Assembly (NCBI GenBank): GCA_051362555.1
Contig: CM120649.1
Location: 7,130,001-7,194,000, forward strand
DNA: 64,000 nt
Reading direction: 5' to 3'
Source: Lingula anatina
Lineage: Eukaryota; Animalia; Brachiopoda
Shown here: positions 9,683 to 50,834 of the stretch, one piece after another
How the letters are laid out: each line of letters begins with the position of its first letter
How positions within the stretch are numbered: position 1 is the first letter of the stretch
The notes under the pieces: model-generated
What the model was told of the DNA's origin: nothing
Database searches by the model: none
What the model saw: only the letters and a program-made list of their open reading frames with translations
Translations under genes and position numbers: made by a program

Positions 9683-9759
9683 TGTCATTGAGCAGTGTGA
9701 AAGACGAGTGCACTAATAAAAATCAAGAGGTTTTTGAGTATATATCACAGTTGGCCTTG

Positions 9760-9815
<56 letters not shown>

Positions 9816-10717: not shown

Positions 10718-10763
<46 letters not shown>

Positions 10764-15280: not shown

Positions 15281-15334
<54 letters not shown>

Positions 15335-16124: not shown

Positions 16125-16185
<61 letters not shown>

Positions 16186-16419
16186 CCCCCATCCCATTCT
16201 AAAAAAAAATTCATGGTCTGTTTATTTGCCAAGTTTTGGTTAATCATAAAACAGACAAAAATATAAAAGCACCGAGAGCGTGCAACCTCCATTAAGACAA
16301 ATAATTAAGTAATAATTAATCTAATCATTTCGCCCTTAGCATATTTCATGTATTCATTAATTTATGAATGGATCATCACCCACATATGGAAGTCACGATC
16401 TAGTACAATGATTCACAAA

Positions 16420-16466
<47 letters not shown>

Positions 16467-17209: not shown

Positions 17210-17242
<33 letters not shown>

Positions 17243-18024: not shown

Positions 18025-18075
<51 letters not shown>

Positions 18076-22995: not shown

Positions 22996-25153
22996 AGGGG
23001 GTGTTTAAGTTAACACAGCTGACGAATAGCTTTAGGGAGTTAAAAATTCAAACTTGATGATCTATCGATATATGGATAAAGAAGATAACTTTTTCAGTGT
23101 GTGAGTGAGTCACCCACCACAAATCGAAACAAGTAAACAATGCTGATAAATCAAGATCACTTTAAATAATGAGTCACCAAAAATAGACAAAACTGTGCTA
23201 TGGAAGGTAGTTTATGACAGATATATTTTATTTTCAATTTTACCTCTTGTATACCTGACGATATACAAAGGAAAGAATAAGATATTCACTGATAATATTT
23301 TGTATTTGTATTTTGTCTTACGATCAGATGAATGCTTTGATTTCAGTATCAATCTAATGAAAACGTATACCCCTACTGACGGAATAGATAGCATTAATAC
23401 TCAAAACACCAACACTTATTACAAGCATCCGAAAAATAATCTAATGCTCGGAAAAAAATACAAAATTTCCCTCAACAAGTAGTGAGGGTTTTGCTGGTAC
23501 ACCTCTTTTTCCTCCTACTCCGGTATTTTATATCCATTGCGTAACAATGCGAATTCTATACCACTTGTTCCGAACAATTTTCTTCTTGGATTTTCCGTCT
23601 CCTTTTCCCTCCAATTTAGGAACCTCCTTAGTTGTCCATTGTCCTTAAAGATACATTTAAAGTCATTTTTTTGTCACAAAAGCCGATTAATTGCCCCCAT
23701 ATGCTGTACTTTCAAATAGTATAACTTAGAAAAATACCAAAAAAATCTTTAAATTATTACCAGAAACAATGACATTTGAACGGATTTTTTCTCCTGACTT
23801 TCTATGCTGTCAGATAAGAAGGTTAAATTAAAATTACGACCAAAATTTGAAGAAAGTGGAATTTAAAGCTATGTTATGTCTGATGAGGTGACTAATATTC
23901 GGTCATTACTTTGTCTTGTCGACTTAATTTGAGTACGTATGAGAAACTATTAGGAGTAGTTTATATGCGTTATGGGAATTCTCGTCCTCCGAAGCTCAGT
24001 TCAAATGATCAGGTCCTCATACCTCTTTACAATTTCGTATCGCCTAAAATACGGACAAACTCCATTTTGTGACGCCCTTTTTCTAAGGGGGTTGCAGATG
24101 CCTCACTTATGACTCAGATTGGTCGGAATAATAACAGATCAGCAAGATGCGTACGTAGTATATGCACTATAAAAGAAATGTGAACAAAAGTCGAATATTT
24201 TCAAAATCGAAACTCAAAATTCTATTAGATCAGTTATGATGTGCGCATAAAAGATCTTTATCTGTCACGCCTTCTAAAGCGGCTAGGGTGTAATTGACTT
24301 TCGTGCACGCTTAAACTAAATACAATTTAGCGAGAAACCATTCGGAGAAAGATCGATCCTGCCAGTACGATAGGGTATGGGAATGGTTCCTTTCTGTGAT
24401 AAGTGAATAAGTACCCGCGGCTGTGTTATGGCATATTGGCAGAATCCTTCGTATCACATTCATATTTCACGATAAATACATTGCAAACAATTCAAAGAAA
24501 TATGATCAATCTCATTTTTTCATTAATAAAGCAGTTATCACAATAAATATCGGAATTTGTGCTTGCTATCAGACCACGTGGACCTTCACAGGTGGCTATA
24601 CCTCCGTAATATTCTAACTTTGGACTACCTTTGCATGTAAGAAGGGATTTTTGAACGATTTGTAGATTAAAAAAATCCGTTTTAATGGCCAAACCGAACA
24701 GTTGTTATCCCTTTAAATACAATATGAACTGTATGCAACGATAGTGGAGTTCAATGCTCCCCTGAAAAGGCATAAATAGAAACAGGCATCAAACGAACAT
24801 AAGCCTGTGTAGGTAAAACTTACGTAAAGTGTAAAATTCGGTGCTAAAGGAGGAAGCCTGTGCATAGTGCATTTCAGGGATCGGACCCCCCCCCCCCAAA
24901 AAAAAAAAAAATAATAATAAAAAGATTAAGCTCTGAAATGAGTAAAAAAAATGCCACAAATACGTTCAGGTGTACGTGATTTCAACAAAAATGGGTAAAA
25001 ATATTAATGGGCGTGAAATCATGTTTGGCAGTGCTTTTGAACTCTAAAAGACAAAAAAAGACAAAAAAAAAAAATACAGTATTCAATATCATTATCTTAT
25101 TCGGACCATTTGAATACGAAAATAAATGCTGGGGGAACTGCGGAGTCCATTTA

Positions 25154-26726: not shown

Positions 26727-26774
<48 letters not shown>

Positions 26775-27118
26775 GATCCACGGACCTTTATTTTTTATCT
26801 CTGGAACCATATCCTTATTCACAAAGGACACTAAAAACAATAGAAAATGAAACGTATGAAAATCATACAAATCATATGATCTCTACCCCCTTAAGATAAA
26901 AGAACTGTTTTAGTTTCTATAGTATGACAACCAATTATTTATATTCGATGTGATAAGATCAGTATACTACAAAGGAGAGAGAGAGAGAGAGAGAGAGAGA
27001 GGGGAGTTTACGTACCTTTTGGTAATAACTCAGGAACCATAACATAGCTAACCACGACAAGGAGACACAACAAAGTGAAAAATCTATAGTAGAGTGGGAA
27101 CTTGTATGTTGAGCTCAT
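25154..27118 (-). CDS. Carbohydrate sulfotransferase (Sulfotransfer_2, CHST11/HNK-1ST-like), copy A
   Basis: Exons 27118-27016 (signal anchor), optional 26830-26786, 26575-26535, 26017-25154. 5'-PSB motif CAIPKVGCTNSKR, 3'-PB motif VRHPLERLVSAYRDK, and CSPCEVHYDVI. Confidence 0.9.
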
Positions 27119-27279
27119 CTTCCTATAAAAATTACTAAATGCCAGAAACTTATCTTTCAATTCAGCACGTTTTAGACCAAACACAACATTACCTGTCTAC
27201 AGTTTCAGGATGGTTTATGAAACGAAGAGAAAAATCTGCGTAATGTGTACAGTCAGCAATTCCATATTATGATCTATTA

Positions 27280-27493
27280 GGGCGCATTCCCATAGATTTT
27301 AGATCGATCTATCCCCGTGGGGAGTCTCACTAGATTACTGTCAGATAATCCGGCTTAAATGTCCGTCCCGCCTACTACAAGCTGTAAGGGGGTAATTAAC
27401 TTTCGTTCCCGCTCGGCTGACAGCTATTTAGCGTGAAACCCCAGGGAGTTAGGTCGATCTAGTTGGATCGATCTTATCTCTGGGAATGGGTTC
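27280..27493. mobile_element. Tourist/Harbinger-type MITE upstream of sulfotransferase copy A
   Basis: Imperfect TIR gggcgcattccca / tgggaatgggttc with TTA TSD. Same family as 40951-41201 and the fragment at ~24260-24392. Not present at the corresponding position of copy B (~31760). Confidence 0.75.
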
Positions 27494-28643
27494 TTAGACT
27501 TGGTGAACACTTTGATAGATACTGAAAGTACGGAGGACCTCCACTACAAGAAATATGCAGACCATCCAATCATCTTTGCTGGTCCGAATTAATAATATAT
27601 TTTGTTTCCTTTAGTCTTTGTTTACATGTGATTTATTATTATGAATAGTATTTTTATACATGTATAAACCTTGCTAGTCCAGGGGACCTGTGATATTAAA
27701 AATATTGCGGGTCCTCTGGCATTTCAAGTGGTCTTGACCTGTCGGACAGGCAGTTAAGACATACTGCACTGAATAACGACTTATACCGCTGATACACATC
27801 TGAAATCATTTGCTGACGGAGCGTGTAAAATTGATATATACATGTACATGTATGATCATTAGATAAAGCATTTGAAACGTGAAAATTAAAATGATCAATT
27901 AAAAGAAAACACATTAAAAAATCAAATGAAATATTAGTCAAACCGAGAAATAGCTTAAGGGCAATAACTCGTTAAAAACATCTTTCTGTCTTTAAATGCA
28001 ACGAATGCCAAATATCGTTTTATATTACCTGTATTGCCTGCGAATGTGCAATGTGCCTATCCGTTTCCATGTCGCTCTACTTAATTGCTAATAAATATTT
28101 AATTTTTTACACGGGTCTGGCCTGTTTGAAATGAACAATTTATTCAAAAATGAATATTATGCGATTTTTTGTTAGCTGTAGGGTATTTCAAAATGATGAA
28201 TATCATCATATTTTTTTTGCTATTTATATCCCATCATGCCGAACCACACCCTCTCTACATCTCGCTCTTTCTCTCCATCTACCGATTTAAAATGTTTAGG
28301 TCATAGTTTGCGCATAGACAGACACAGCAGAGGTTCGTCTTATTTGTGAAAAGAAAAATGTTTCTAATATTGAAGATGAATAACATTTTAATTTACTTGT
28401 ACGGTTTATGTAGATATAAGGGCAAAATATTTACCATTGGTTCATCCCACAAAGGTATGCTGTATATATTAATGATCTCAGATATTGCACAATTAAAGGG
28501 ATAACAACTCTTGTTTCACAATAAATACATCGTAAACAACTCATAGAATTATAATCAATTCTATTTTACTACAAAACGCCGGTTTTAACTATTATTCTGG
28601 AATCTGTGCTTGCCATATACCACGTGACACCCCCCCCCCAAAA

Positions 28644-28674
<31 letters not shown>

Positions 28675-29041
28675 GTAAATAAATAAATAAATAAATAAAT
28701 AAAAATAAAAATGAAAATAAACAGGGACTAACTTAAAAGGTACAATTTATGTAAAGTGTAAAAATTGTTGTAAAAGGGGGAATGCCTGTACGTAGAAGAT
28801 TTCGGGGGTCGGACACACATCCCCAATAAAAAAATCAAACTCTGAAAGGCGTCTAAATGTCACAAACACGTTCTGGTGCACGTGATTAAATCAAAATTGG
28901 GTGAACTATTAATGAACGTGCATTTAAGTTTGGCAGTGCTTTTGATTTCTAAAAGACAAAAATACACTATTCGATGTCATTATCTTATTCGGACCATTTC
29001 AATACGAAAAAAAATGCTGGAAACACTGCTGACTCCCTTGA

Positions 29042-31428
29042 CTAAAGCCAATTTAGGGTATAATTAAACAGGCGTGCATCGAGGTCGTAATGCCGCCATA
29101 GTTTTCTGATATCTGTGCGGTTGACACTGGTAAAATACTTCTTCCAGATTTCTGTGGAATGCTGCCGGCCCTCGGATGTTGGGAACTCGAATATGTCCGC
29201 GACCCCTAGGAGCTCCAGCATCATTTTGACGTCACGACTCAGTGTTTCCCACCTAATGATGACGTCATAATGAACCTCACACGGACTGCACAATCGATTA
29301 TAATTTTCAAAATGGCCGTCATAGTCTTTTTTCGGGTCTAGAGATGAAATATATTTCACAAAGGCCGGAAACGAAACTCCCTCTTTTCCTGCCAGCATTC
29401 CAGGAGATGGGTTGACCTCGAACATTTTTGCAATCTTTTTGGCAGTTTGGGGATATACAACGTCATTAGTGACACCCTCAACCTTGTCTCTGTAGGCTGA
29501 TACAAGTCGTTCTAGTGGGTGGCGCACTATGATGACTTTTAAGTATCTTTTTAGTCGAAACTGAACACCAAACGATGAAAAATGCTCCAATCTTGGTAGA
29601 TATTTCCTGTAACTGGTGACTAAACCTCCACGATTATCGCCAAATTTAAAGTAATTCTCCTTATCTATATTGCCAGTCAAAGCATAGAGCAGGCGTTTGG
29701 AGCTTGTACAACCGACTTTAGGCATTGCACACAAAATCAAGCGGTGTCTGTCGTCAACGTACATCACGTGACTAAGCGGCCCTTTATTTGCAGTGCTGCC
29801 GTCTAGCGATCTATTTGTCTTTTGGCACGTGGCTTCCATATGATTAACTCGGCGTTTCATTTCTTCTCGCCAGGAGTCAGGAACGCTGGACCAACTGAAA
29901 TGCTAGGGAATAATGTGTGAATTATTTAATTGCATTCATATGAAGATCAGTATGGGATATTTTTTCCGAAGCATTGTCTTTGAATTTTTCCTACTTTTTT
30001 TCCGATTTAAAATGAAAACAAGGGTTTAAGTCTTTTTTCAGTAATCAATCTTTGAAGTGTAAATGTGACATCAGTTCTTTAAATGAATTCATTTTATTAA
30101 GCAAACAAAAATGCATGGCTGATTCTAATTCATACCACAACCATTAAAAGCATTATTCCATATTTGCAAAATTATCATCTGTGAAAGAGTTATACGCCTC
30201 ACAAAGGACGATCATATCAGTGTCTAGTCACAGCAAGGGTCAATGGTGCGTCTGGCCTCATCTGGCTGCTACTAGGGCTCTAAATCGGCGAAGTATTGCT
30301 TCTGACAAGATTTTTTGAAGTTTGAACTGGAATCATATTCAAGAAATTGATTGGGGCTGAATATCCTTGTATTTTCAGGTTTAGGTTTCTATAGATGACT
30401 ACTACTGGGGTTTGGCACCAACGTGAATTCCGCCCCAAATACAGATGCTACCACCGGTTGTATTTGTTTCTCTGTAGCAGCAAAACTGTACGAAGAATGG
30501 ATTCTGTTTCCCTATGGTAAGTTCTGGATGCCTTGGGCTTGGCCTCTGTGTAGGTACACTGGACTGGGCGTACCTCTGTAAGACTGTGCGGAGCGTTCCT
30601 TGTAACAGAAATATCTGTCTGGCAATGCCTATCTGTTTTGCACCATTCTGGCGCATATCAACAATGCTGTATCACACAGCTTCACTCAGTTTTCGTACCG
30701 TTACATCCGCTGGTTGTATGCAAAATCCTTTGCCGAAATATTGAGACTTTTTTGGCTGAACCATGATCTGCCATAGTCATATTTAACACCAAAGAAACCA
30801 ACACTCGTTACGTAAGGCAGCCGTGCTTCAGACAAGGTAGTCAGTTAATTGATATTGGTATAGCTGCCTATACAGATATATGTTTTCATAATTCACAAGT
30901 TTTAGAAATAAATTACACAGTTTTACCTTAACACATCTATGACACTATAATATTCCATATTAAATATCAAGTCTGTTTAATGACAAAACTGTTGTGCTTC
31001 AGCGGTTTCCCACAAATCAAGGTGCGTTTCTCATCAGCTGCTTCACTCCTTTAAAAATTCATTTTGCAGAAACCAAGTGAACATTCGATATAGTTAAAGA
31101 TACAGTGATCATAAAAACTATATAAAACTACCTGACATTTAAGCCTTGGAGCTAACTGGACGCTACAAGAAACATTTTCTCTAATACAATGTGTTCACAC
31201 ATGTTGTATCTGATTAAAACCCACCTGTCGTCTAAGTCTCGTATTTTCCTTACTCCCAAGTGACACTGTAAACAATAGATAATAAATCGTATGGAATATA
31301 ACGCATGAAAATCATCCAAATCATACGATCTTTTACTTCCATTAGAAATAAGAACCAATTTATTGTTTTAGCTTCTACAGTATGCACACTTACTATTTAT
31401 ATTCCATTTAATAAGGTCCAAATATTAC

Positions 31429-31600: not shown

Positions 31601-32879
31601 CTTCCTATAAAAATTACTGAATCCGAGGATCTGATCTTTCAATTCACCACGTCTTACACCAAACACGTTGCCTGTCTTCAGTTTCAGGTTGGTTAATGAA
31701 ACGTAGAGAAACGAAGAGAAAATCTGCGTAATGAGTAGAGTCAGCAATTCCATATTACGATCAACTTGTTAAGTTCAGTACTCCATAAGGCTTACCAGAC
31801 TGAATAATCTCTTATTCAGCTAATATAAATCTGAGATGGTTTGCTGACGGACCCCGTGAAATTGAAATATAAAATCATCAAGATTAAGCGTTTGAAACGT
31901 GAAAATTAAAATGATCAATTATAAGTAAAAATTAAAATGAAACAGAAGTTAAATCGAGTACTACATGTGGCTAAAGGGTAATAATTCTTTATAACCCGCT
32001 TACTGTCTTTCAATGCAATGGATTCCAAATACCGTTTTGTATGTGCTATATCGTTTTAATAATACCTGTATGGCCTGCGAATGTGCAAAGTACCCCGCCG
32101 TTTCCACGTCGCTCTGCCGAATGGGTATTAAATATTTCAGTTTTTAATACGGGTCTTGTCGGTTTGACGTTAATAATTCATTCAAAAATGAATATGATGC
32201 ATTTTTTTATATGCTGTAAGGTATTTCAGGATGATAAATCATAACATTTTTTTTGCTATTTATATCCCATCTTGACGACCCATACACTCTCTACATCTAC
32301 CGCTTTAAAGTGTTTAAATCATGGTTTACTACGAAAACGCCGATTATAGCAATTATTCTGGAATCTTTGCTTGCCATTGGACCACGTGACCTCCACAGAT
32401 GGCCACCCTCTGTGAGCCTCTTAAGAGATAAGTATAAAAAATTATATTTAGAAAAAAAAAAGAGACTTATTTAGAATGAAGGAATAGATTTATTCACCAT
32501 TGGTAACAATGGAAAAGTCGGCGTTAACCCCAGGAAAATCTGTTTTTTGGCCAAAACGATCAGGGCTCGGAATCTCGAAAGGTTCGCTGTGTTGCGCACA
32601 CGCTCTAGCATGGCTAGCGTGCGCTATCCCGTATCTCGAAAGATTCGCTATTTTGAGCGCCTGCGCTAGCATGGCTAGCGTGCGCTATCCCGAATCTCGA
32701 AAGCTTCGCAAATCCCGGCCGTGCGCTAATGTCCAAATCACCATTAGTTTCGAGGCTATTATTTGCGGCGATACAAACAAGACGCAACTGTTTTTACGCA
32801 TGCGTTCTTGGTCATTATATTGAAATTGTCATAGCGGCTAGTTTTGTTGTTGTAAGAGAAAAATGCCAGGAAAATGCTA

Positions 32880-33066
32880 AAAGAAGGTGTGTGAGACGTA
32901 TAGATCCTATGGTAGAGTTCCAACCCCATATTTTTCATCAGAGATACCGCATGACGCAGGAGAATGTGCTCAAACTGACCAATATTATTGAAGAACCTCT
33001 GAAAAGACCGACTACGAGGTCTCGAGCACTGTCACCCACTACCCAAGTTCTTGCTGCTTTACGTGT
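32880..33066 (+). pseudogene. Harbinger (HARBI1-like) transposase N-terminal fragment
   Basis: FHQRYRMTQENVLKLTNIIEEPLKRPTTRSRALSPTTQVLAALR matches the HARBI1-type N-terminal HTH region. No DDE core follows. Confidence 0.75.
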
Positions 33067-34119
33067 AGGGCCTACTTGCATAGGATCTCTGAGTCTCACA
33101 CACACTTCCATATTCTCCTGGTATTTTTCTCTAACTCTCAGTTGGATCATTTATGAATCATTGTGGGATGAATAAGGATTATTTTTTCATTAAATAAAAG
33201 TAAATAAAATAATGAAAACTGATTTTCTCTTTAAAATTAATGTTAGATTTTATTATATTTTGCATATATTTTGCATATAATATTAATAACTGAAATTTAA
33301 AATAAGTGTACAAAATGACAAAGGTGTACAAATTTGATTTAATATAACAGCTAGTTTTCATGCAGGAAATTTAATAACAATTTCCAGGAATCAAAAAGAC
33401 TGATACTTTAAGTCAATTACTTTTGAAGTACACTTTCAATGCAAATAGGGCAAAATAAAATCACTTTTAAGTTTATGTAAGAAACAAAACAGACGGTCAA
33501 GTTATATTTTACATAATTTTTTTTTATTTTATGAAACAATAACATGATGAAACTATAAAATAAAATATAAAAATAATTTTATAAACAATTTCCTAAATGT
33601 ATATTCTTGTTTAAATTAAAGTTAATAAGTACAATATAAAAATAACAAGGACAAAAGCACATGAAAACTATCCCTTATAAAAGATTTGTAACAAATTCCA
33701 GTTCTTTGCTGAGGTCATAAACTTAGTTTAAAATACAGTACTGAATGATCAAACTGATGCACATATTGGAAATTACTGAATGAAAAATACTCACCTTGAA
33801 AATGCTAATATGTGAAAAAATTAATATTTCACACATTCACAGACAAAAAAATTAATAAATAAAAATAATAATTTACCAAAATTAATTTGCTCTGGATGGT
33901 TTTGAAACAAAATATTTTAATAATTTGGAACGCTCCTTATGAAAGTTTGACAATTCCCTTGCAATGTGTCATTTGAATTGCATACAGTAATATGGTCCAA
34001 TCCAAGTGATACTTAAAACAGCTAGTATGTGTCTTGGCAAAAACCTAAAATATCATGATCCCAATAAGATGCACTCACTGGTAAGTATCTACAAGAGACT
34101 CACACTTCAGTACATCCAA

Positions 34120-35347
34120 CTTCACTTCACAGTATTCTGTTATTTTTTCAAATACCACTTTGTTACTTTTGTCAATTTCTAATCTCTCCCTTTCTTACTG
34201 TAAACGCACTTTTTCTACTTTCAACCTCTCCTCCTCTAATGCTAAGCAATCCTTCTCTAGGTTGTAGAACCTTTCACTTACATCTGAAATTTGAAGATGT
34301 ATGTAATTATAATAATTAAATATAAAATGATACAATAAGAACTCAATCTTTTCAATATTCTGAATTTTACAGATACTGTACTTTTAAATCACTGTGATAA
34401 TTTTTCATAAATGAACATATTCCTGTTCAGTTGCAGCAACAGAAATGAAAAGCCGACTATGCGACAATGTTGAACACTTTCATAAGCTATATGTTTGAAA
34501 TTACCAATTAAGTTTTTTTTTGTTCATAAGTATAGAAATCAGTATAAATATATAGAGATATATGTATGTATAAAATATGCCTCCTGGTGACTGGACATTC
34601 CAATGGTACGTATGTCTGTGAAACTCAGTGTTGAAGTATTCATATTAAACAGAGTCTAAGTTAATTACTCTACTTCATATCATCTTGAGGTTCTTTAAGC
34701 AATTAAATATAAAACGAAGTTAGCCATTATGCAATTTAATATACAAATTCATTTTTAATAATAACAAAATAACACCTTCTTCTCCCACTCTGACAGACTG
34801 GGCCCCACACCATCACCTGTCTGCCGCACTGCCACACTGCTGCACGGCGTTTGGCCTCTTTGCGCTTAGTGCGAGACGTGAGGTCATGCCATTTTTTCCT
34901 GACCTCTCGGAAACTCCTCTTTATATGTGAAACACTAAAAACTCTAGAAGGAAAGCATTCATAATTTTAATTAAAAAAATATAAGAATCACCACTTTATT
35001 GCTTCATCATACATGTACATGACCATGTCAAGATGTGTTAATAGAGAGCAATTATAATTACTTTTATTGAATAACTACAACAACATACCAAACGAAATCA
35101 TCAATAAGCAATAATTAAATATAATGGATATAATTTCACCTTGGCAAAACAGACTACGATTCACAGAAGAGGACTGTTAATCATAATTTTCAACTTACTT
35201 TTCGGCAACTTCAGCTCATTGTTTTTCTTTGTTTTAAGAGTCACGGTGTTGGTGAAGGGGCTAAATAGTGTAGGTCTACACGAGACCTCCTCCACCAACA
35301 CCGCGAGCTCATCGGTTTTATAAACGCTCCCTACTGTGTTTCTCCAT
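34120..35347 (-). pseudogene. Harbinger Myb/SANT-like DNA-binding protein, disrupted and spliced
   Basis: Fragments DELAVLVEEV...LFSPFTNTVTLKTKK (~35320-35225), RSFREVRKKWHDLTSRTKRKEAKRR (~34920-34845) and a C-terminal coiled coil LEKDCLALEEERLKVEKVRL (~34260-34200). Frameshift/stop near the start. Confidence 0.7.
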
Positions 35348-35820
35348 TTCACGTGCGATTTACTATCGTCCCTCCAGATAGCAGGTGGGTGCAATCGCAC
35401 TAGCAAATAGCGCACGCTAGCTATGCTAGAGCGCGTGCGCAACATAGCGATCCTTTCGAGATTCCGAGCCCAGTTGTTATCCCTTTAGATACAAATAGCA
35501 ACTGAATGCCACGACATTGTGGTTTGGGGTAATTAACGAAGTTATAAGTTCAGTTAGATCAATGAAAAGGTATAAATTGAACCAGGCATCAAACGAACAT
35601 GCATCTGTAAGTACAATTATTGTATGAAGTGTAAAAACCGTTGCTCAAGTAGGAAACTCGTGCATAGCAGATTTCCGGGGTTGGGGACACATTCCCAAAT
35701 AAAAAGATTAAACTTTGAAAGGAGTAAATACGTTCAGGTGTACGTGATTTCAACAAAAATGGGTGAAAATATTAATGGGCGTGCAATCATGTTTGGCAGT
35801 GCTTTTGACTTCTAAAAGGC

Positions 35821-36475: not shown

Positions 36476-39400
36476 TCAAAAGATTTTTGAAAACCACTTC
36501 TGATAAAATGTGTTCTCTTCAACTTTCTTTCTCCTCTCAGTCCCATAAGTCATAGCATACACTGAGGGTCCTGGACGTAAAATTTGGGCACTACCGAGGC
36601 ACTCCTCTCCCTTGTAAAATGCCACATGCTGACCTGGAGTAATTCCCTTCACTGAGTCGGGACACGAAACTATCAAATAGTCATGCCCACAATAAGAGTT
36701 TGATGAAGCTAGAGTCATGGTACATTTTCGTAATTGTCCGCCATGATTCTGCTGGTACTCGCAGTCTAGCATTTCCGTCTCGACGAGCTTGAAGGGAATC
36801 TCGTGAATCCAGTGTGGAAGACGTGTGAAAAATGTCTGTGCAAATAATGCTGGATGGTCCTGGTTTGAGACCTGGTAATGATAATTAATAAGTATTATTG
36901 TTAGGAGACCTGGTAATGGTATTGAATGAATTTAACACCTATTGAAACTGAAATGCCAATTTCATGTAAATGCCCTTTGAACAGGGAGCAAAATGTTATC
37001 TAATGTGGTTAATCTTACAACAGTCCAAATGTATTTTTCAGTCATGCCGGTAGTTGCTAAAATAAAACATAATACATAATACATAATACACCTAATACAC
37101 AGTTTACAAAATGATTCAGCATCATTTTTTCTTTCTTTTCAATTATTAAATTTAACAATACTGAAATTAAGAAATCTTACAAATAAACTCTACATCACAA
37201 ACAGTATTTTCTAAGCAGATGTATGAGGAAAGAAATTAAGGGCAAATATCAGTAACAAACCAAGTGACTTACCACCATGATATCACAGGTGTTAGAATCT
37301 ACATCAGTTAACACTTCAGCTACGTACATCTCCTCCTTGTGTCCTTGAATGTGAACTTGTTGACCTACAGTCCAGGAAACAGCACCTAGAAAACAATAAG
37401 TTCGTCTTAGGGATGGCCATTGACTAAGAACACCTGGTTATACTGCTTAGTATTGTCCCTGCACCATTACTCCCCTGTGCATTGATACTCACCACTGGTT
37501 CAGATGAGACATACAAAAAGCATTTCGTAACTTAACTTTATTGAGAATATTGCTATCCTAAAATGACAAATGTTTTTAATCATCATTTGAAAACAAAAGT
37601 AAAAAACCTATAAGACTAAACTCCTCACTTTCTACAGTAAATTGGAGGAGCTGTTATACCTTGGGAGTGACTGAAAGCTTTGCAAGGTATAGCTTTAAGT
37701 TAGTAAAGAAAGTGGAAAGTTTTGTCTTACAAGCATTACCAACAGAAGCTATCAGGGGGCAGAGAGTTTGATGTGAGAGGCTATAAGATGTGAGAAGCCA
37801 CTTTCAGAAGGATGAGGTTGTAATGGAGGTGAAAGAGTACCACTTGCCTCATTACTTTGTGAACAAGTCTATAACTGATCATCAGTGATGTGAACACACT
37901 TATAAGCACATATTATAGATGTTAAAATGCGTTAGATGTGAGAGGCTATCAAGGACAGTGTGTTAGGTGTTAGAGGCTATCAAGGACAGTGTGTTAGGTG
38001 TTAGAGGCTATCAAGGACAGTGTGTTAGGTGTTAGAGGCTATCAAGGACATTGTGTTAGGTGTAACAAAATATAAGCTGAACTTGGAAGCGTGTTAGGTG
38101 TGAAAGAAATTTGGAAGCAGTATACATACTAACCGTGACAGAGCCATAACTCTAGCCACTCTCCCTGCTAATGTGGTTCATATCATGATTAAAACAAAGC
38201 AATTAATCAGCAATTAAACTTTACCATCATGTTCCCCAACTGTCTGACTTGTTTCCAGATCCACATATCTCCCTGGCTTGGGCAATTTATGCTAATTTGA
38301 AAATAAAGAAAAAGAAAGCTGATGTTACTAGAGAGAAATATGGTTCCATGTACTGACATGATCTTTGGTTGTAAAAAAAGATGGAAGAATTGACTTCATT
38401 GCTTTTAGAAAGGTGCTTTGGGGGCTGCTTAAACTTTCTTGAAACTGCCAAGAAAAAAAAAGCAGATTTCCAATTTAAAATAAATCAGAAAAAAAATCAT
38501 GTCTGTACCCTTGTATGTAACTGATGAAAAACCAAGACTTAAATTGACACAGAACTTAGTATTGTGACCATACAGTCAAAATAGACCTATTTATAATTAT
38601 AATATGTTTTTCTTCAATGTGTTAATGAAAATACAATTCAGCTTTATTACAAATTGAAAATTTATGCTTCATTGTAAATAAAATCTGAAATTGTGGCATT
38701 AAACTGGCATGTTAAGACACTAAATTGACTTGCAGGTTGCATATTTACAGTAACTTGCATTTTGAAAAAGACTGAAAAAAAATCAAAATTCCATATTTTC
38801 AAGTTAATGATGCTGTCACTGAGGGAAACAAAATTTATTCTATTACTAACCTCTGTCACAAATCTTTGGAAACTGCTTCTCCCATAGGAACACAAAGAGG
38901 AATCCTACCATAACAAATAACTATAATATTAAAATTACAGTGAACCTGAATAAGTATATAGCTCTTATTGGTTTTCATAAACAATGCAAATCTTTATCCG
39001 TTAACACAAGCGAATTTTTTCTATGACGAAACATGACAGCCCAATGAATAGACAGACAGACAGACAGTGAAATACTAGTAAAACTGTAACAGATAGTAGC
39101 CAACAAAGCATAAAAATCATTCAAACTGGAATTTGAAAGATGTTAAAGTTTACATGAATAAACCCTAGGTAGTCATAAAACAGAAAACAAGGAAAATATT
39201 GTTATTCCTATTCAATTATAAATCCTTTCAAAATTTTTTTTAATAACAGATGTCAAGCAATAAATGTACTTTCTGCATTTAATCAGTCTGTGCCAAAAAT
39301 TTTGAGCCAACTGCCTCTTTAGGCCACCAAGCTTATGATTCTGTTGACCTAAACCAGAACACTAAGTAGTAACTTAACAGATCTTCAAAACTTTTGTGTA

Positions 39401-41774
39401 TATACAATCCCAATATTGAATGACAGAATTTTATGTAGGGCTAGCATTTTAATGCTGTCCCCCCACCAAAATGCTGGCCCCCAATTAAAATGCCACAGAC
39501 TGTTTTAAACCAAATTGGACTTGCTTGGCAACCATTTCTGAATCACTGGGAATTGCTGTGGTACTGATGATAATTTTGCAGACTGCACCTGCATATAAAC
39601 ATACCTCTCCTTTTTTTACTATTGTGTCAAGGCCATTTTGAACAGCAATATCTCTGACAACTAGTGTGGGTAATTCGCCTATAGGAAACACCGTTTTCTG
39701 CAATGCTCTCTGGGAGACTTGTGACAAGGAATATGTTTGGTCTTTCAATTGCTCAGAGGCTCTCAGTAGTTTCACACCTGTAATAAAAAATGTGTCATCA
39801 ACTTTCTCGTTACATTAGTTGCATTATTTATTTTATCAAATTCTAAAAAGATTATGTTGGAGTGAGCATATTTCCTGTACACTTTGTTTAATAATGATAT
39901 GGCTTGGGTAAAACATAACAAAAATCCCATTATTCAAACTTCTTAACTTTTCCTAAATATTGATGTTTCAAAATAAAAATATTCATCATGTGCTCTTTTA
40001 AGAAACCTTCTTAACAAAATTTTTTTGGAAATTCAGATAAATATACAAGGCACAAGTTGCAACTGGAGGACATTCATTTACATTAAGACATCATGGATCA
40101 CATTTTGAGAAAACTTAAGTAGCTCGAAACCAAAACTTAACCTCTTGCTGGATCAACATTATTCCTGATTATATCCTGTGTTAGCCTGGCACCATGTCCT
40201 GTGGCAAAACCATGAGCTTTTATGTCATTTAACACATGGGATATAAGAGTTCCGAAGGTTATATGCTTATTACACACAGCATCCAGGCTGGTGAGACCAA
40301 GGTTTTGATTGCCTTTAGTTGTCTCTCTGTAAAATACAAAGCAAAAGCAAAATTAAATTTCAATTTTGAATGTAGGTAGTAATTATATCGAAATATTTCC
40401 TATTTTTGTCAAATATGAACTGCCTTGGAAGCTACTTTCAGAATGATGAGGTTGTAATGGAGGTGAAAGAGAACCACTCACCTCGTTACCTTGAGAACAA
40501 GTCAGTAACTGATTATCCGTGATGTAAACAGAGTAATACGCACATACTAAATATTATGCTTTTTTAAGTTTACAATGTAACTCGTGATTATTCATGTTTA
40601 AACTAGGAAATGACAAGCATTCTGCATGAATAAATGTGGCAAAAAAAATTGAGAAAGTAACTGGAACCCCCCCCCTCCCCGCAATGGCACTACCAAAGCA
40701 ACTCTTTGATTAGAAAATTTTCAGATTACAATATTCTTTTATGATAACAAATATGAAATAAATTTATGCTACTATCTTTTTAAAGGGCCACAGATAATTT
40801 TTCAAAGGATATTCACAGATATCTTGATCTCTGGCTAATTCTGAAGATTTCTGTAGTATCCAGTAATAATTTTGGCACAGACATATACAACTTCATCTCC
40901 TGGAGGCCTCTGGTGGAGAGGACATTTTTGGATGAAGTGCACTCAGTTAAGACTGGGTTCCCATGCCTAGATTGATCCATCTGGCTCAGTCTAACTCCCT
41001 GGGGAGTCTCACTAAATTGCTATCAACTTAACCGACTTAAATGTCTGTCACGCCTACCAAATCAGCTAGGGGGTAAAGATAATTACCCTCAAACAGCCTA
41101 ATTATTAGGCGTGACAGACATTTAATCTGGTTAAGTTGATAGCAATTTAGTAAGACTCCCCACGGAGATAAATCAATCCAAATATCTGTGGGAATGGTCC
41201 CTAAGATTATACTGTCAATGTTCAACGCAATTGAACTCCTTTCAAAGCTGACCTGAACACTTTGTCCCAATATTCTTTTGTCAGGTGCACTTCCTGCAGA
41301 GGTATTCCCAGCTGTTTGCAGACAAGGTGGGCATTTTCTGCTGCTTCTTCATTTTTGTCTTTAGACTCCCCACTTGGGTCGTCACTGACCAAGTGAACTC
41401 CACTGACTGTGAATCCTGAAAAATCCATACTAGTACAAGTTTTATCATACATCAAATCAATTTTTGTAAAATATTCATTTTGATATCCTGCATCTACAGT
41501 GTAGATGAGTGATGGAATTGTTAAAATTACAATACTAGAAAAGAAATATTTTAATAGATAGGATTTTCCAGAGTTTCTGTGTTTGTGACTATCAGCTTCT
41601 AAGTTCCACTTCGGCCGGTGCGAAAACGCAAATTATGTAACGTGTACCCGCATTTCTTTCAAGGCCAACGCAAACGTCCAACTTCTCACCTTTACTTTTC
41701 AATAAAAAAGCCGCAACAGCACTGTCCACTCCTCCTGACAAAGCACAAACTATATGCTTTGTTGATCTCAACAT
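36476..41774 (-). CDS. TRMU: Mitochondrial tRNA 2-thiouridylase TRMU/MTU1 (MnmA family), divergent, ~411 aa
   Basis: Exons 41774-41690, 41415-41253, 40326-40142, 39777-39605, 38904-38851, 38291-38225, 37385-37273, 36871-36476, all GT-AG, 1236 nt in frame. Motifs SGGVDS, DAVCNKHI, ATGH, KDQTY, DHPAL and PGQHVAFYKGEECLGS. Confidence 0.88.
37927..38065. repeat. Minisatellite, 31-bp unit x ~4.5
   Basis: gtgttagaggctatcaaggacagtgtgttag repeated in tandem within a TRMU intron. Confidence 0.9.
40951..41201. mobile_element. Tourist/Harbinger-type palindromic MITE in TRMU intron 2
   Basis: TAA TSD (40948-50, 41202-04). Long inverted arms ggggagtctcactaaattgctatcaacttaacc / ggttaagttgatagcaatttagtaagactcccc. 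Same family as 27280-27493. Confidence 0.8.
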
Positions 41775-41979
41775 TTCCCACGTAAATATGTTTTAAAGCG
41801 TTAACAGACTAACATTGTCTACCCTTCTGTTATGTCACAGCATGGAGAAGTAGGTCAGCTGGTGTTATGAAAGTAAACCGGAATTGATGATTTTTTGTAT
41901 GTGGAGTTCTGAAATTGTTAAAGGATGTGACGTCAGATCTGCGCAACACATTACTGCGCATGTAAACATTTATAACAGG
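41775..41979. promoter_or_regulatory. Bidirectional promoter shared by TRMU and SUCLA2
   Basis: Only 205 bp separate the divergent ATGs. Contains a full CRE TGACGTCA (41928-41935), NRF1-like TGCGCA motifs (~41940, ~41955) and an ETS-like CCGGAA (41878). Confidence 0.65.
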
Positions 41980-44900
41980 ATGGCGTCTATCTTGGCAAGA
42001 GGTGGGACATTTTTGCGTGGGACAGCTATTCGACAATGTCAAAAGGTAATTTAAGCTGTCAGTTGATAGATGACTCCTAGTGCCCTATGAATGTCAAAGA
42101 ATTCGATTTTTAAAATAATTTTAAAATATTTTATTTTGAATTTATATACTGTGCTATGTACGTCCGTTCGCTCTCCTTGACATTTCAACTTATTTGCAAT
42201 AAGCCGAGTTATTTCGAAATATCTTATTTTTCCCGTGTTTTTTATACTGTGAAAAATCAAATTATATACGCAGTGATAAAACTATTACAGATCGGAAGGT
42301 CTGTTTTTTTTTTTAATTTGAAATTTAACTTTGTTAGATTTGCTAAATAATTTTCTTTTGAAACGTATTTTGATAAATATATCAAGTGTGGAACCTTTAA
42401 GCACGCATTTGGGGCCGCGCATTTGTGTGCATTTGGCATTTTTTCAAGGTCAGAACATCACGATGTAAACTGCGTCTAGGTTTTCTCAGCTCAGTTATTT
42501 GCTATTTGACCAAGATTGCAACACTTTTCACTTTTGAGTGAAATTATTTGACAAGTTATTGAAGTAATAATGCAGTTAACAAAAAGTTTTGTTGTGTACC
42601 CTCATAAAATTTGTACATATGTAGCCATTATGCTTTCTGTCAGAATGAAGTACTCACAAATATCACATGGGGTTTCTGATTATGCAACATAACCTCCAGT
42701 TAGCTTCTTGTAAGTTGATCAGCATTCTCATTCAGGAAGTGATTTTTATGTACAGACACAGATGTGTCTGTACATATAGCCATCATCTGCGTCTGTCGTC
42801 GCCGTCGTCGCCGTCGTGCACTTTTACCGATAACACGATAAGTGGAAAACCATTTTGCCTTTTGATTTGAAACTTGCAGAACTGATGAAAATTCATAATA
42901 CGCAGGTCAAGTTCGAAAATCAGCATGATCGGGTCACTCTTAGGGAATTTATGCTGTTTTTTCACTTTTTTCAACATATATGCAGCACCGATAACACGAT
43001 AAGTAGAAAACCATTTTACCTTTTGACTTGAAACTTACAGAACTGATGAATATTCATAATACGCAGGTCAAGTTCGAAAATCAGCATGATTGGGCTATTT
43101 TGAGGGAATTTATGCTGTTTTTTCACTATTTTCAATATAAATGCAACACTGATAACACAATATAAGAAAAACGGATTGGCCAATTGTAATTATACTCACA
43201 GGAGTGGTCAATCTTACTAAAACGCAGGTTGAGTTCGAAAATCAGCATAATCAGGCCATTATTTTAGAAGTTATACTGTTTTTTTCACATTTCCTCAGAT
43301 TCAATTCTTAAGCATGTTAACAGTCTCATTATTTAACTAATAAGATGCCTAAAAGTGTTTGTTTGATATTTCCTGTATCTTTACAACATTGTTAGTTGAT
43401 TATGTAAAAAACATGGTAAACTTGTTATCATGTATTGTGTAATAAAGTGTCAAAAATGGAAATAAACTCATATCATTGCAGTTTGTCAGATTCAATCATC
43501 CACTATGTTCAGAATCTCAGAATGGAGGAAATTGGACATTTAACACTGTTCTATTGGTACTTTTCCCATTTCATCAATTTTTTTAGTTGGTCATATAAAA
43601 ATGGCAGTAAAATGTTTATTTTGTTTTATGTTAAAAAAGTGTTAAAAATGGAAATAAACCCATTTCAGAACAGTGCTGTCTTGTTCAGCATATATGCAAC
43701 ACCGTAAACACGATAAGTGAAAAACTGTATTACATTTTGGCTTGAAACTTACAGTACTGATGAATATTCATAATACGCCGGTTAAGTTCGAAAATCAGCA
43801 TGATCGGGTAATTTTTAGGGAAGGTATGCTTTTTTTTCACTTTTTTCAGCATATATGCAACACCGTAAACACGATAAGTGAAAAACTGTATTACATTTTG
43901 GTTTGAAACTTACAGAACTGATGAATTTTCATAATTCGCCGGTCAAGTTCGAAAATCAGCATGATCGGGTAATTTTTAGGGAAGTTATGCTTTTTTTTCA
44001 CTTTTTTCAGCATATATGCAACACCGTAAACACAATGTAAGAAAAACAGATTGGCCAATTGTCATTGTACTCACAGGAGTGGTCAATCTTGCTAAAATGC
44101 AGGTTGAGTTAAAAAATCAGTATAATCGGGCCATTATTTTAGGAGTTATGCTGTTTTTTCACAATTCCACAGATTCAATTCTTAGGCATGTTAACAGTCT
44201 CATAATTGAACTAATAAGAAATGTAAAAGTGTTTGTTTGATATTTCCTGCATCTTTACAACATTTTTAGCTGATTATGTAAAAATGATGGTAAACTTATT
44301 ATCGTGTATTGTGTAATAAAGTGTCAAAAATGGAAATAAACTCATATCATTGCAGTTTGTCAGATGCATTCATCCACTATGTTCAGAATCTCAGAATGGA
44401 GGAAGTGGGACATTTAACACTGTTCTATTGATACTTTTCCCATCTCATCAATTTTCTTCATTGGTCATATAAAAATGGCAGTAAACTGTTTATTTTGTTT
44501 TATGTTAAAATAGTGTTAAAAATGGAAATAAACCCATTTCAGAACAGTGCTGTCTTGTTTACATTTTGGCATTTTCAATATGTGACTTAAAAGTTCCATG
44601 GGCCTGAAGACTTTTGCTAGTCACATTTTCTGAATAACCATGATACTAATATTTTATAATTAAAAATTGATGGTCATTATGCTGCAAAACATTATGTAAT
44701 GTTGCATCAAAATTTGAAGAAACCCCCATTTTGGGCACTGCTCCCATGATGACCATTTAAGGAAAATCATGTCAATTACTGTTCTCAAACTTACAGGAAA
44801 GAAACATGGGTCTAAAATACAGCTTCAGTAGACAATGCAGTCTGTTTGGTAAATTTTTCTGGCAATTAAACAGTTTTCTGTGAAAATTTAATTTTTTACT

Positions 44901-47900
44901 TATTGGCATTTCCAAGGTGTGACTTAGAACCTCCATGGGCTTGAAGACCCATGCTAGTCACATTTTCTTAAAATCCATGACAGGTATAATTTATTATGAA
45001 AAATGGATGGTCATTATGCTGTAAAACATTATGTAATATTGCATCAAAATTTGAAGAAACCCCTATTTTGGGCACTGCTCCCATGATGACCATTTAAGGA
45101 AAGTCATGTCACTTACTGTTCTCAAACTTACAGGAAAGAAACATGGGACTAAAATACAGCTTCAGTAGGCAATGCAGTCTGTTTGGTAAATTTTTCTGGT
45201 AGTTAAGCAGTTTTTTTGTGAAAATGTAATTTTTCACATATTGGCATTTTCAATGTATGACTTAGAACCTCCACGGGCTTGAAGACCCATGCTTGTCACA
45301 TTTTTTGAAAATTCATGACACTTATATTTTATTATTAAAAATCGATGGTCATTATGCCGTTAAGCGTTATGTAATGTTGCATCAAAATAGAAGAAAACAC
45401 AATTTTGGGTGCTGCTGCCTTGATGACCATTATGGGAAAACTGTGTTACTTATGACTGTCAAACTTTCAAAAAAGAAACACAGGACTAAAATGCAGCCTG
45501 AGTTGGAAAAGCAGTCTAATTGGCTTCTTTTTCTGGAAGCTATACATTTTAGTGTAATATTCATTATCTTTTTGGCATATTCATTGTGGGACTCAGAGCT
45601 CCCATGGACATGAAGCCGAATGGTTATCATATTTTCTACATGTCCATCCTATTTATAGTCAATAAACAAAAATTGGTGATAATTATTCTCTAATTTATTA
45701 TGTAATGTTACATCAAAATTGACAACAATCTTTTTGCACTGCTACTGCAAACATTATGAAAAGAAAACTGTGCTACTTATTATCATTTTTAACTTACAAG
45801 TACGATTTTTAGGATTGGCCTTCAGCTCATATGAGAAAACCAGCTCTATTGGATTATCATTTTTATTGAATTTATGCATTTTTTGTGAAATTTTCATTTT
45901 TCTCATTCTGGCACTTTCTAAGTATAAACTTGAACTCCGATGGGCCTGAAGCCTTATGCTTTTAATTTCGTCTGTGTTACCTGTTGTGCATAAGTTGATG
46001 TTGACTGTGCAGTTAAACATAATGTATTATTGCATCAGGATTGGTAGTCTCCTATTTTGGGCATTATGGTTTTGTGCTTTTCTTAAAGTGTGACTTATGG
46101 GCCGAAAGACCTTTGAGTGGGTTAGTCTGTAAATTACCCTTGGGTATCACTAGATTAATTTCAGAGTTATAAAGTCATTTGCCTTAATAGGCCATTAAAT
46201 GAGATTACATAAAGCACACTTGTTGATATTTCCCTGTAAACTCCCAAAGGTAAAGCTCTCTGCTAGATTAATAATAAGGAAGCAGTGATAATTATGCAGG
46301 TAAATTTTGTTTAATATTGCAAATAAGTTTTAAATAATATATATATATATATATATATATCAAACTGGAAGATTAAAAGTTTGAATAGCATCTTCATTGG
46401 AATTATATTTACCTCAAGCTCTGCCAAGGAGGTCATATTTTCACCCCCGTTTGTCTGTCATCCACATCACACAAAAAGTTATGGACTGATTTTGCAGAAA
46501 TTTTCAGGAACTGTCGGAGGTGGGCCAAAGAGGACAATGATTAATTTTTTGTGGTGGTCTGGAACAATAATCAATCAATTATCAATAATAATCAACAATT
46601 GCTGACTTGGCAGTGGTCTGCACTCTCAAAGTGCTTTTCTAGCTTTGTTATGTTTTCCTTTATAATTTTTTCTCAAACACTTGCATTTGTGACTTTTAAC
46701 TCTCATCTGCCTGGGGCTCTGCACATTTTCTGTATTTCCACATAAGCAGTTGTATTGTTTTTTATGTCTTTAAACATTATGTAATATTATTTTATGCACT
46801 GTCATCATTTTTCAAATATTGAGAGTTTCATAGTGTGAATTTGAACTCTCATGGTCCTGAAACTGTAATTTTATTGAAGGGGTGGACCATCTTCTGGGTC
46901 TTCCTGAAGACAGTCAGGTTATTAAGTTTATATTGACTGGTATCTATTTTTTTCTGTTGGAAGACCATCAAAATGGAGGATGGATCAACATAGATACTTT
47001 GTAATACTGTCAGAAAATATCTCTGGGTCCGCTCCTGTTATTGACCATGTTACCTGTTGTGCAAGATTAAAATTCAGTGTTGACTGACAATGCTATTATA
47101 AGCATTATTTATTATTGCATCAAAATTGACAAAATGACCTGTTTTGCATCTTTATTTTCTGTTTTTTGTCTGTACATTTGACAGCTTTGCTGCCTTGTTT
47201 ATGTTTAAACCATTTGTAATTAGATAATTTAGTCCTAAATGACTGGCCAGTCAATATTTAGAACCCCTTGTTTTTCTGTACATTTCAGAAGGATATATCA
47301 ACATCTGATATTTTCTTTAATTGTTCTTTTAGAAATGAATTGGCCAATATTAGTAACTAAGCAGAATATACCTAGACAAAGAAAATCTGACTTGGGGACA
47401 TTTTAAGACAAAGGATAACATACTTTTTAATGATTTGAAGCATTAAGAAAAAGTTTTATTCACTAACTTGAGTCTGACAAGCAGGTTTAACCTGGGAGCT
47501 TGGTCATTGCAGATATTGGGAGTGACCCCCAGCTTGGATGGCCACCAGCAGTCGAGACATCTTTCCATCCATGAACACCAGAGCATGACCTTTCTGCTAA
47601 ATCAAGGAATCAGTGTCCCAAAGTTCAAAGTAGCCAAAAATGGCGAAGAAGTATATGCAATAGCTAAAGAGCTAGGTATGCTATCATTTGAGCAGCACAT
47701 TTAATTTTGATTTAGGAGTTTGAAGTTAAGCTATTTTGTCCAGATCAAACCTGAAACAGTGAACAGAAATTGAATGCAGTTTTTAAATTTTTACTGGTTC
47801 AGCTTTAGTTTTACTAGCACTTGGCTTGGAGCCAGTAGTAAAGTGGTTAAATAATCTCTTGGGACATTTCCAGGAGAGACCACAGACAGCACAGATGTGG

Positions 47901-50795
47901 TGGTCAAAGCCCAGGTGCTGGCTGGTGGACGAGGCAAGGGAGTCTTTGACAGTGGACTCAAGGGAGGGGTCAAGATTGTTTTCTCGTAAGTTTTTTTTCT
48001 CTTGATTTATATTAGGGGCGGTTGGAGGCCGTCTTGTGGGTCTTCTGGAAGAGGGTCAGAATTTTTCAAGTTTACATTGACTCGCATCTTATTTTTTCTG
48101 TTGGAAGATGGTGAAAAATAATGGAATATGGATCAACAAAGATAATATTTGGAAGACTGTCAGAATATATCTCGATTTGCCCCCTGCATATATGCCATAT
48201 ATGGAAGTTGACATGGATATAAACTTTTATAAGAAAATAGAAAAGTTAGATTTTTAAAAATTGTTTCAAAACACTGCATAGATCTAGATGACAAGATATT
48301 TCCACATCATTGCAGTTTATGTTTGTTAGAGTACAAGAAATGTTTGGCATCTGACACATGAGAGGATTTAAGCACCCATAGTGGGTAAATATGGTATGCC
48401 AGATAAAGATAAAATCATGATTAATGGTAATAATGTTTATTATTATAATTATGGATCTTTCTTTTCTGAATAGAGCTGAGGAGGCTAGAGACCTAGCCTG
48501 CAAGATGATAAACCACAACATAGTCACTAAACAGACAGGAGAGGCAGGTCGGCCCTGCAAGGAAGTCATGGTTTGTGAGAGGTTATATTCTAGGAGAGAA
48601 TGCTACCTGGCCATCACAACGGACAGAGCTTATGGGGTGAGTGAGAATTAGCTTTGGGGGAAGGAAGACATATGCAGCTCTTGGGGGAAGGGTAATAAAT
48701 GGCACATACGTAATATATGTGAGGTTTGGTATCAAGGTGATCAAGATGTTGCTTATGGGGCATAGATAATTCATAGCTTGAGGATACTTAAGACAGAGCT
48801 TATGAGATAGTAGTGTATGGGGTAAGTAAGAAAAATAAGGATAAGAGAAGTAAATTTCAGTGCTTAATCTCTACTGATAATGAATACAAAACATTTACAG
48901 TGTCATTTCTTACCAGATATAGCTCACTTGAGGTTTTATAATTTAGCTATTTACTGAGGGTGGTGATAGTGTAGGGTAAAAAAAATATGTCAGTTTATTA
49001 TTAATTTATTTCATTGATTTGATCTATGTTCTGTATCTAGGGACCAGTGATAGTAGCCAGTGCTGAGGGCGGTATAGATATAGAAGAATATGCCAGGGAA
49101 CATCCACAGGGAATTATTAAAGGTACTTATGAACTGAGCATGGTGGAGGGTGGATTCTCCCAAATGCATATAAATCACTAGCACTAGTTTCTTATTTGAC
49201 TCAATAAATTCAACATGCCAAGGGATAAACTAAATAAATCACTCGATCAACAACTGTAAAAGAGCTTTTAACTGCTCCTGTCTTGAAATTTTTCATCAGA
49301 AATTTAACCTACTTATCTGACGTTCTTATCTGCCCCATTTATATACAGCATAGAAAGCTAGCTGAAAAATCTGTTCAAATATAATTTTTCATTAAAATTA
49401 AATGGTGTCTTTTAGTAATTCTCTTAGTTATACTATTTGCTGGCATATAGTTTCAAATAGTAAGCATTTGGTCAGCTTTTGTGACGAAAATTTGACTTCA
49501 TGTGCATCTTTAAAGAACCCATTGACATCACTACTGGAATCCGGAAAGAACAGGCTCTCTCTGTAGCAGGACAGCTAGGATTTTCAGAAGGAAGGAAAGA
49601 AGAGGTAAATACTGGATTTTTTTTGCTGCATACTGAGTGTATTTATATTAGTCTCTCTATTGTTGGGTGATTGAAGTAAGATTATACATATTTGTTTATA
49701 TCAATGTTTTTTCAATTTGGTTATCAAAGAGGGAACACTTATCCTGAGCTTCAACAACATTCTTTGCAAATAATGTTTACTGTATATTTGGAAGTATGAA
49801 GTCTTTAATTAATTAAGTAAATGATTCAAGCCTCTTTTGTTCACAAAAGTGATGTTTTGATTTGTAGTTATAAAGTAGATGATAAATGTTTTCTATTCTT
49901 AGTATTCTTAGAAGTACTTTAAAAATATATGAAATGTTCTGGCAAGGCTAGCAGTGAAATAGCAAAGATCTCCCTAATTCTCTTCCAGGCAGCAGATTAT
50001 ATAATGAAATTGTACCACATGTTTTTGGACCTAGATGCCTCTCTTATAGAAATTAACCCTTTAGCTGAAGATATAAAAGGCAAAGGTTAGTGCATATTAT
50101 GTTAATTTTACAACAGTTACTTAATTGAGTGATTTAACACATGCAGTTTTCAACCTCTTTTTAGTTTTTATATGTTTGCTAAAATCTATTGAAACCTACT
50201 GGTTTGATTCATAGGCAATGTTTAGAACATTTTATTCAAATTTAAACCAATTTCTGAAAAATAAAATTACTTTAGTGAGTAGCACTTAAGGTGTTTAAAA
50301 AGTTTCAGACATTCAACTTGTGCTGTAGTAGAGATGATCCTAATTCAGTTTAAATTCTTTGGTATGTTTTGATTGACCAAAAAGTTTGACTTCAGAGTAC
50401 TTTTGTGAAACAAAGCCGTGCATTCATCCATTAATTCCTCTTTCATATTCAGTCTACTGTATGGACTGCAAGATCAACTTTGACGACAACGCCAAATTTA
50501 GACAACAAGAGCTTTTTGAACTGCAGGATTGGTCTCAGGAGGATGAGAGGGATTACAAAGCTCATCTGGCTGATCTCACTTACATTGGCCTGGACGGGGA
50601 TATTGGTTGCCTGGGTAGGTTGTCATTTTAATAGCAAAAAATGAAATTAGGATTAGTCAGCATTTAAAATTTTGATAAATTTTTAAGTCAGTTTAGATGT
50701 GGCTGAATGTAGTCAAAATAATTTGGTATTTTTCTTGAATTTGAGGTCTTATTTTGAAGTGGAGTGTGACCAGTATGGATTCTCACAATAATAAT

Positions 50796-50834
<39 letters not shown>

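Follow-up and report, generated by a model that had tools for sequence, protein, structure and literature searches.

The main finding of this study is that one intron of SUCLA2 in the brachiopod Lingula anatina is filled by a TTAA-bordered element that exists in many copies, and that this intron is spliced out exactly. With high confidence we read it as a transposon-made intron, likely a Kolobok-type MITE that entered an intact exon in an ancestor of Lingula and was probably tolerated at once, since the ends of the element make the splice sites. Animal intron gain is an open question, and in this conserved housekeeping gene one can see the element with its family, the exon as it was before and the product of splicing, so that this is likely one of the few clear examples of an animal intron of transposon origin.

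Anatomy and splicing of the intron

The window, by which we mean the whole 64-kb stretch of DNA analysed, contains the gene for the ADP-forming beta subunit of succinate-CoA ligase, within which the following features are placed.

41980..53265, + strand: SUCLA2 (succinate-CoA ligase ADP-forming beta), 12 coding exons; ends of the first intron deduced from the protein P0001
49041..49122, + strand: 5' part of the split exon, 82 nt of the ancestral 171 (RNA joint, outgroup contigs)
49117..49120, + strand: left TTAA, the target-site copy retained in the exon (sequence; at copy 2, reads of the family stop at the corresponding TTAA)
49121..49122, + strand: first two bases of the element, AG, which stand for the host AG in the mRNA (sequence, RNA joint)
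49123..49515, + strand: 393-nt intron with GT..AG ends, in phase 1 behind the Lys of IIK|EP (RNA joint in all four runs)
49492..49496, + strand: branch-point-like TTGAC inside the element (candidate), its A 20 nt before the last intron base
49510..49515, + strand: right TTAA plus host AG, forming the 3' splice site AAG (sequence, RNA joint)
49516..49604, + strand: 3' part of the split exon, 89 nt of the ancestral 171 (RNA joint, outgroup contigs)

The identity of the gene is clear: a protein search with one exon (22 proteins) returned Lingula anatina SUCLA2 (P0001) at 98%, with the next match at 75%, and the spliced protein of the window agrees with P0001 at 404 of 415 aligned residues. Three of the changes lie in the core and the others come from the provisional start of exon 2; the window sequence is not identical to the source sequence of P0001.

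The donor GT is formed by element bases 49123-24, while the element ends in CT at 49508-09. The first-pass annotation, made from the sequence alone, had proposed this arrangement, and every coordinate in it was recovered, namely TTAA at 49117-20, AG at 49121-22, GT at 49123-24, TTAAAG at 49510-15, an element of 389 bp and an intron of 393 nt; the TTGAC that it had placed about 20 nt upstream of the acceptor is likewise present at 49492-96, and its TGAC recurs in the two other copies of the family in the window. The donor scores 6 of 9 against the U1 consensus, as do four of the nine other SUCLA2 donors. Upstream of the acceptor the element supplies 10 pyrimidines in 14, and the acceptor itself is AAG, while the nine other SUCLA2 introns examined end in CAG or TAG. 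Excision of 49123-49515 leaves an open frame through IIK|EP, whereas retention of the 393 nt introduces stops. No special structure was found on folding the intron RNA (z 0.53).

From its first to its 393rd base the intron aligns over its full length, border to border, with the second copy of the element plus its flank, and element, TTAA and exon follow one another without any extra base. The 6-nt repeat at the two borders was rejected as proof by itself, as one of the nine other SUCLA2 introns examined (51118-52015) also has such a repeat (51112-51117 and 52010-52015); this control intron has no homolog in the window, and none of the nine matches the MITE family. The transposon origin is accordingly argued from end-to-end homology with a many-copy family together with the RNA joints, and not from the ends or the repeat.

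Splicing was followed in four of the nine RNA runs available under the species label, from three studies, mapped over 47400-57000. The joint 49122/49516, which skips 393 bases with GT..AG ends, occurs in all four (7, 8, 27 and 27 reads, 69 together), so that the predicted restoration of the codons by splicing 49123-49515 is borne out. This number compares with 66 and 67 joint reads for the two flanking SUCLA2 introns and with 52–75 for eight other joints of the gene (the joint at 50615, which was divided between two rows, is excluded). A rival joint for the MITE intron is absent among the 15 of 19 joints listed, despite in-frame AGs close by, and in both stranded runs its joint reads share the strand of the other SUCLA2 joints.

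The element, its family and its surroundings

Three copies of the element were found in the window.

49121..49509, + strand: Kolobok-like MITE copy 1, 389 bp, ends AG..CT, no ORF above 48 aa
56161..56537, + strand: MITE copy 2, 377 bp, TTAA on both sides, close to the common family form
23649..24003, - strand: MITE copy 3, left end absent, right end followed by TTAA (23645-23648)

Copy 2, which had been proposed as a full-length homolog, indeed aligns with copy 1 from end to end including both TTAAs (302/399 positions, 76%, E 2e-77), a divergence of 0.26 substitutions per site; their longest shared word is 21, and megablast does not link them. Copy 3 (24003-23645, minus strand), which the first-pass annotation had not listed, matches at 67% (E 5e-16), having lost about 13 nt on the left and kept its right end with the TTAA. 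Copy 2 lies outside any gene found, about 390 bp beyond the stop of a minus-strand GPCR ORF, and copy 3 is not an intron of any gene found in the window. In length (377–389 bp), in being non-coding (longest stop-free stretch 48 aa) and in number (three window copies and many more in the reads), the family has the features of a MITE.

The wider abundance of the family is seen in the reads. RNA depth over copy 2 is 55–410 per 320-nt bin, against roughly 3–20 in SUCLA2 exon bins, and loose ends with mixed flanks stand exactly at its borders, at 56157 (32–266 reads per run) and 56541 (24–419), which points to many loci having these ends, with homology stopping at TTAA. In all four DNA runs the contigs over 49191-49271 add up to a depth about 1000-fold that of a single copy, a figure that is inflated by overlapping short contigs and does not equal copy number. 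The consensus of the loose ends is nearer to copy 2 than to copy 1 and, given this and the divergence of 0.26 between the two, copy 1 is probably an older insertion. A family variant without 56280-56392 is carried by RNA runs X17 and X19. Copy 2 has no match among phage records, and the 27 matches of the left-end pattern in viral contigs, none of which extends past 33 aligned bases, were treated as chance.

Copies 1 and 2 are each flanked by TTAA left and right, copy 3 on the right, and the termini of copies 1 and 2 are AG ... CT, that is RR..YY; the TTAA duplication is read from the ends of the copies and not from a filled/empty pair. At TTAA, piggyBac elements have termini of the form YY..RR, and membership of that group was rejected, as copy 1 has AG ... 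CT. Kolobok is defined by TTAA with 5'-RR ... YY-3' termini, unlike piggyBac (PMC9587614), so that the assignment first made on these grounds agrees with the published definition. The Xenopus T2-MITEs, with their AGGRR, do not accommodate the family, whose ends are AGGTA and AGATA/AGATG. As to terminal inverted repeats, those of copy 2 match best (11/13, the top of 14 TTAA pairs listed); those claimed at the outset for copy 1 are weak, as its 9/13 is reached or exceeded by 12 other TTAA pairs of the window and is within noise when taken alone; the scan was thus rejected as proof by itself, since it does not single out copy 1. Within the 64-kb window there is no long element with ends of this type, and no transposase or autonomous partner could be linked. 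From its ends we regard the family as a Kolobok-like non-autonomous MITE.

Further TTAAAGGT sites occur in the window at 52172, 56538 and 42400 (minus), none of which borders a mapped SUCLA2 intron. A second end motif, AGGGATAACAAC, follows TTAA or TAA at 28493 (+), 24716 (-) and about 35492 (-) and probably marks another Kolobok-like family; one AGGGATAACAAC site lies 0.7 kb from the absent left end of copy 3.

Several other sequences of the window were recorded in passing. Intron 1 of SUCLA2 (5.5 kb) contains tandem arrays at 42826-45961 with spacings of 161 nt and about 337 nt. A repeat at 48017-48173, with many RNA reads showing loose ends and with a copy at 46887-47023, is an insertion inside an old SUCLA2 intron (47986-48473) and not a whole intron. 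At 49903-49909, contigs of all four DNA runs have about 40–49 other letters, the window representing a short allele of the next intron. A tRNA thiouridylase-like gene (36476-41800, minus strand; Pfam tRNA_Me_trans_C) lies head to head with SUCLA2 (41980, plus strand), the two starts probably being within a few hundred bases of each other. At 32563-35471 there is a 2.9-kb element with 65-nt inverted ends (94%), a Myb/SANT-like ORF and a 172-aa ORF without Pfam match, which resembles a decayed Harbinger-type transposon. The remaining features are two tandem TNF-ligand genes (2048-18889, minus), a broken DDE_3 transposase (11593-12057, plus), two tandem single-exon sulfotransferase ORFs (25154-29902, minus) and a rhodopsin-family GPCR (57499-59040, minus).

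State and origin of the insertion site

The spliced form is letter for letter the sequence of an empty allele, and RNA and DNA come from different animals; RNA alone cannot separate spliced from empty alleles, and DNA of the filled site is therefore needed. The explanation at stake is a harmful insertion that still segregates, with the joined RNA reads coming from insertion-free chromosomes. The identity of joined and empty forms in RNA speaks for it, as do RNA runs X17 and X19, whose fixed letters at some exon positions are not those of the window and which so belong to another population, for which the window does not imply the state of the insertion. At the four exon positions listed (49532-49570), runs X11 and X14 have the letters of the window, and they still show the joint. 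We read the differences between X17/X19 and X11/X14 as a sign that the species label covers more than one population or cryptic species.

Four of ten DNA runs, one per study, were used over 48300-50700. In X1, an 833-nt contig (48399-49231) crosses the left border; its depth is 73, where single alleles have about 49. In the most distant run, X10, contigs span both borders, the right piece with 24 differing and 31 extra letters, so that the insertion is present in DNA of different studies and with allelic differences inside. In X5, two contigs (depths 43 and 37) have their start at 49492 and so include 22 nt of the element plus TTAA, which is below the 31-letter rule. Among the rows listed for X3 there is no border-bridging piece, and its coverage gap at 49029-49109 was counted as no evidence. 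A joint of the empty site is absent among the 15 of 32 DNA joints listed for the four runs. Together with the distance of copy 1 from copy 2 given above, these observations stand against a segregating allele, which we consider highly improbable. An old insertion at or near fixation is the best reading of the data, and is not proven.

The ancestry of the exon was examined with the unbroken exon as search pattern, to which ten metagenome stretches matched; interrupted exons are undetectable by this design. Three of the stretches (L004, L005 and L009) are intron-free and probably cDNA, and were removed from the outgroup count. The other seven are genomic and have introns (six are distinct, L001 being equal to L007 over the stretch), and all are unbroken at the site. 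L002 and L010 have both introns that flank the exon in Lingula (offsets 0 and 171) and none at offset 82, which indicates an ancestral exon of 171 nt (82 + 89) and a gained intron. In L003 and L008 the next intron is at offset 129. Human SUCLA2 has exon ends at c.534 and c.802, bounding the same 268 nt, and skipping of its exon 6 shifts the frame (PMC10342173); an intron at offset 82 would give a human exon 6 of 186 nt, in frame, and the human gene should thus be without it, in agreement with the first-pass annotation. On these sequences the MITE intron is a gain relative to distant animals, those of the metagenome contigs and human.

It could be asked whether the element replaced or overwrote an older intron, or whether copy 2 was copied into the site via shared flanks during break repair. 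Copies 1 and 2, 7 kb apart, both sit in TTA-TTAA-AG, sharing three bases on the left and two on the right (about 0.3% by the base rates of the window, a figure computed post hoc), a coincidence that is unexplained and that favours such a process, and the outgroups compared are distant, with none close. Against it, there is no spare base between element, TTAA and exon, the genomic contigs of other animals are unbroken at the site, and pieces of the family consensus resemble copy 2 more, so that copies 1 and 2 are not a specially close pair. We judge this origin very unlikely and favour direct insertion into an unbroken exon. The absence of spliced reads, an intron at the site in outgroups and only partial homology of the two copies had been named beforehand as outcomes that would count against it, and none appeared.

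Mechanism, scale and relation to known introners

The process that we favour can be outlined as follows. A Kolobok transposase encoded elsewhere would have cut an exonic TTAA, into which the element inserted in sense orientation with duplication of the TTAA. As the sequence shows, the element starts with AG-GT, the AG standing in for the host AG and the GT serving as donor; only sense insertions bring a donor, because the other end, read backwards, begins AG-AT. The acceptor is the host AG after the second TTAA, with the pyrimidines of the element and TTGAC upstream, the latter being a presumed branch point. The RNA data show that the resulting joint is exact and as frequent as those of its neighbours, and the insertion would by now be old and at or near fixation.

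AG follows TTAA in 77 of 1182 readings in the window and in 2 of 22 in coding stretches and, with orientation taken into account, about 3–5% of exonic insertions would be scarless. By chance one to two introns are expected per 1000 neutral copies, or 3–23 for 3000–10000 copies, at an assumed coding share of 8–12%. One intron or a handful of them thus needs no specialisation, and the element most likely makes introns incidentally, being an ordinary MITE with fitting ends. In coding frames TTAAAG reads as Leu-Lys (phase 0), as xTT-Lys-G (phase 1, the SUCLA2 case) or with a TAA stop, from which it is predicted that introns of the family follow TTAAAG and so lie either at Lys (phase 0 or 1) or at a stop codon TAA. 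The earlier proposal that any sense insertion at an exonic TTAAAG gives a perfect intron follows from this geometry and has been seen once. The geometry depends only on the Kolobok TTAA target and the AG start, both widespread in animals.

A larger claim, compatible with this explanation and differing from it in scale, is that the family is a true introner, that is a specialised, exon-enriched family with many introns in Lingula and a target wider than TTAA, which surveys have overlooked. The meeting of one such intron in a single 64-kb window favours many over one, as does the TTA-TTAA-AG context of both full copies, and with 3000–10000 copies chance by itself would already give the numbers of introns stated above. 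On the other side, two of the three window copies are not introns (the third being the one for which the window was flagged), the other SUCLA2 introns examined do not match the family, and there is no excess of A after the right TTAA: 122/541, 141/525 and 23/47 reads (counts of reads, not loci, in the three of four RNA runs listed) against 485/1182 sites. An introner family is defined by at least four similar introns in non-paralogous genes (PMC12130899), and the same 2025 survey gives L. anatina zero families. This zero is weak evidence, as the method of 2022, in its description, requires intron similarity to begin within five exonic bases (PMC9860276) and SUCLA2-type introns would share six; megablast, moreover, misses the relation of copies 1 and 2, whichever BLAST task the survey used.

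Overall we consider a specialised introner family unlikely. It is an even chance that the genome holds four or more such introns, and somewhat less than even that Koloboks with AG-GT are ready-made introners at TTAAAG, with this family having seeded scarless Lingula introns uncounted by surveys. The first-pass annotation had spoken of a possible intron-gain system, which goes beyond one known intron, two of three window copies outside introns and a survey count of zero families for L. anatina. If the filter works as described, the survey is blind to the TTAAAG route and the scarcity of animal introners may in part be artefactual. Even if the SUCLA2 intron has no siblings, it stands as a clean isolated example.

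In the literature, single transposon-born introns are reported in many eukaryotes (PMC11282704), and a survey of 835 animal and land-plant genomes met with introners in no more than two groups of animals (PMC9860276). The 2025 table contains four rows that mention Kolobok, all from dinoflagellates and none finally classed as Kolobok (PMC12130899). Ten of ten full-length Xenopus Kolobok copies begin with AG (PMC6004289), and the word intron is absent from that paper. Searches found no work linking introners with TTAA or Kolobok with Lingula (the family may be catalogued in Repbase or in subscription journals), only one fungal paper, judged by its listing, for introners together with Kolobok, and, judged by title or listing, nothing on the SUCLA2 intron among publications on Kolobok with TTAA and introns or on Lingula intron gain from transposable elements. 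What is new is that a brachiopod has gained an intron, with support from RNA, from a Kolobok-like MITE; transposon-born introns as such are already known.

The SUCLA2 intron resembles those introners that carry the 5' and co-opt the 3' splice site, in that a short non-coding DNA element with a target-site duplication brings the donor and the target supplies the acceptor, and, as with known introners, mRNA length is unchanged and splicing is efficient (PMC9860276, PMC12130899). Unlike them, its TTAA duplication contains no AG, so that the acceptor comes from host bases beyond the duplication, and two element bases are exonic; it also differs from introner families in being a single known intron, in a brachiopod listed with no family. 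With Kolobok and the Xenopus T2-MITEs (PMC9587614, PMC6004289) it shares TTAA borders, RR..YY termini, the AG start, short imperfect inverted ends and many non-coding copies, while the AGGRR of T2-MITEs (PMC6004289) is replaced by AGGTA and AGATA, the GT supplying the donor. As transposon-made introns in marine animals, the MITE introns of Fritillaria borealis and the sea-urchin introner are comparable (PMC11282704, PMC12130899). The former have non-canonical ends and an altered spliceosome (PMC11282704), whereas the SUCLA2 intron is canonical GT..AG, and the urchin family consists of four members of about 7 kb of non-LTR type (PMC12130899), in contrast to the 389-bp DNA element described here.
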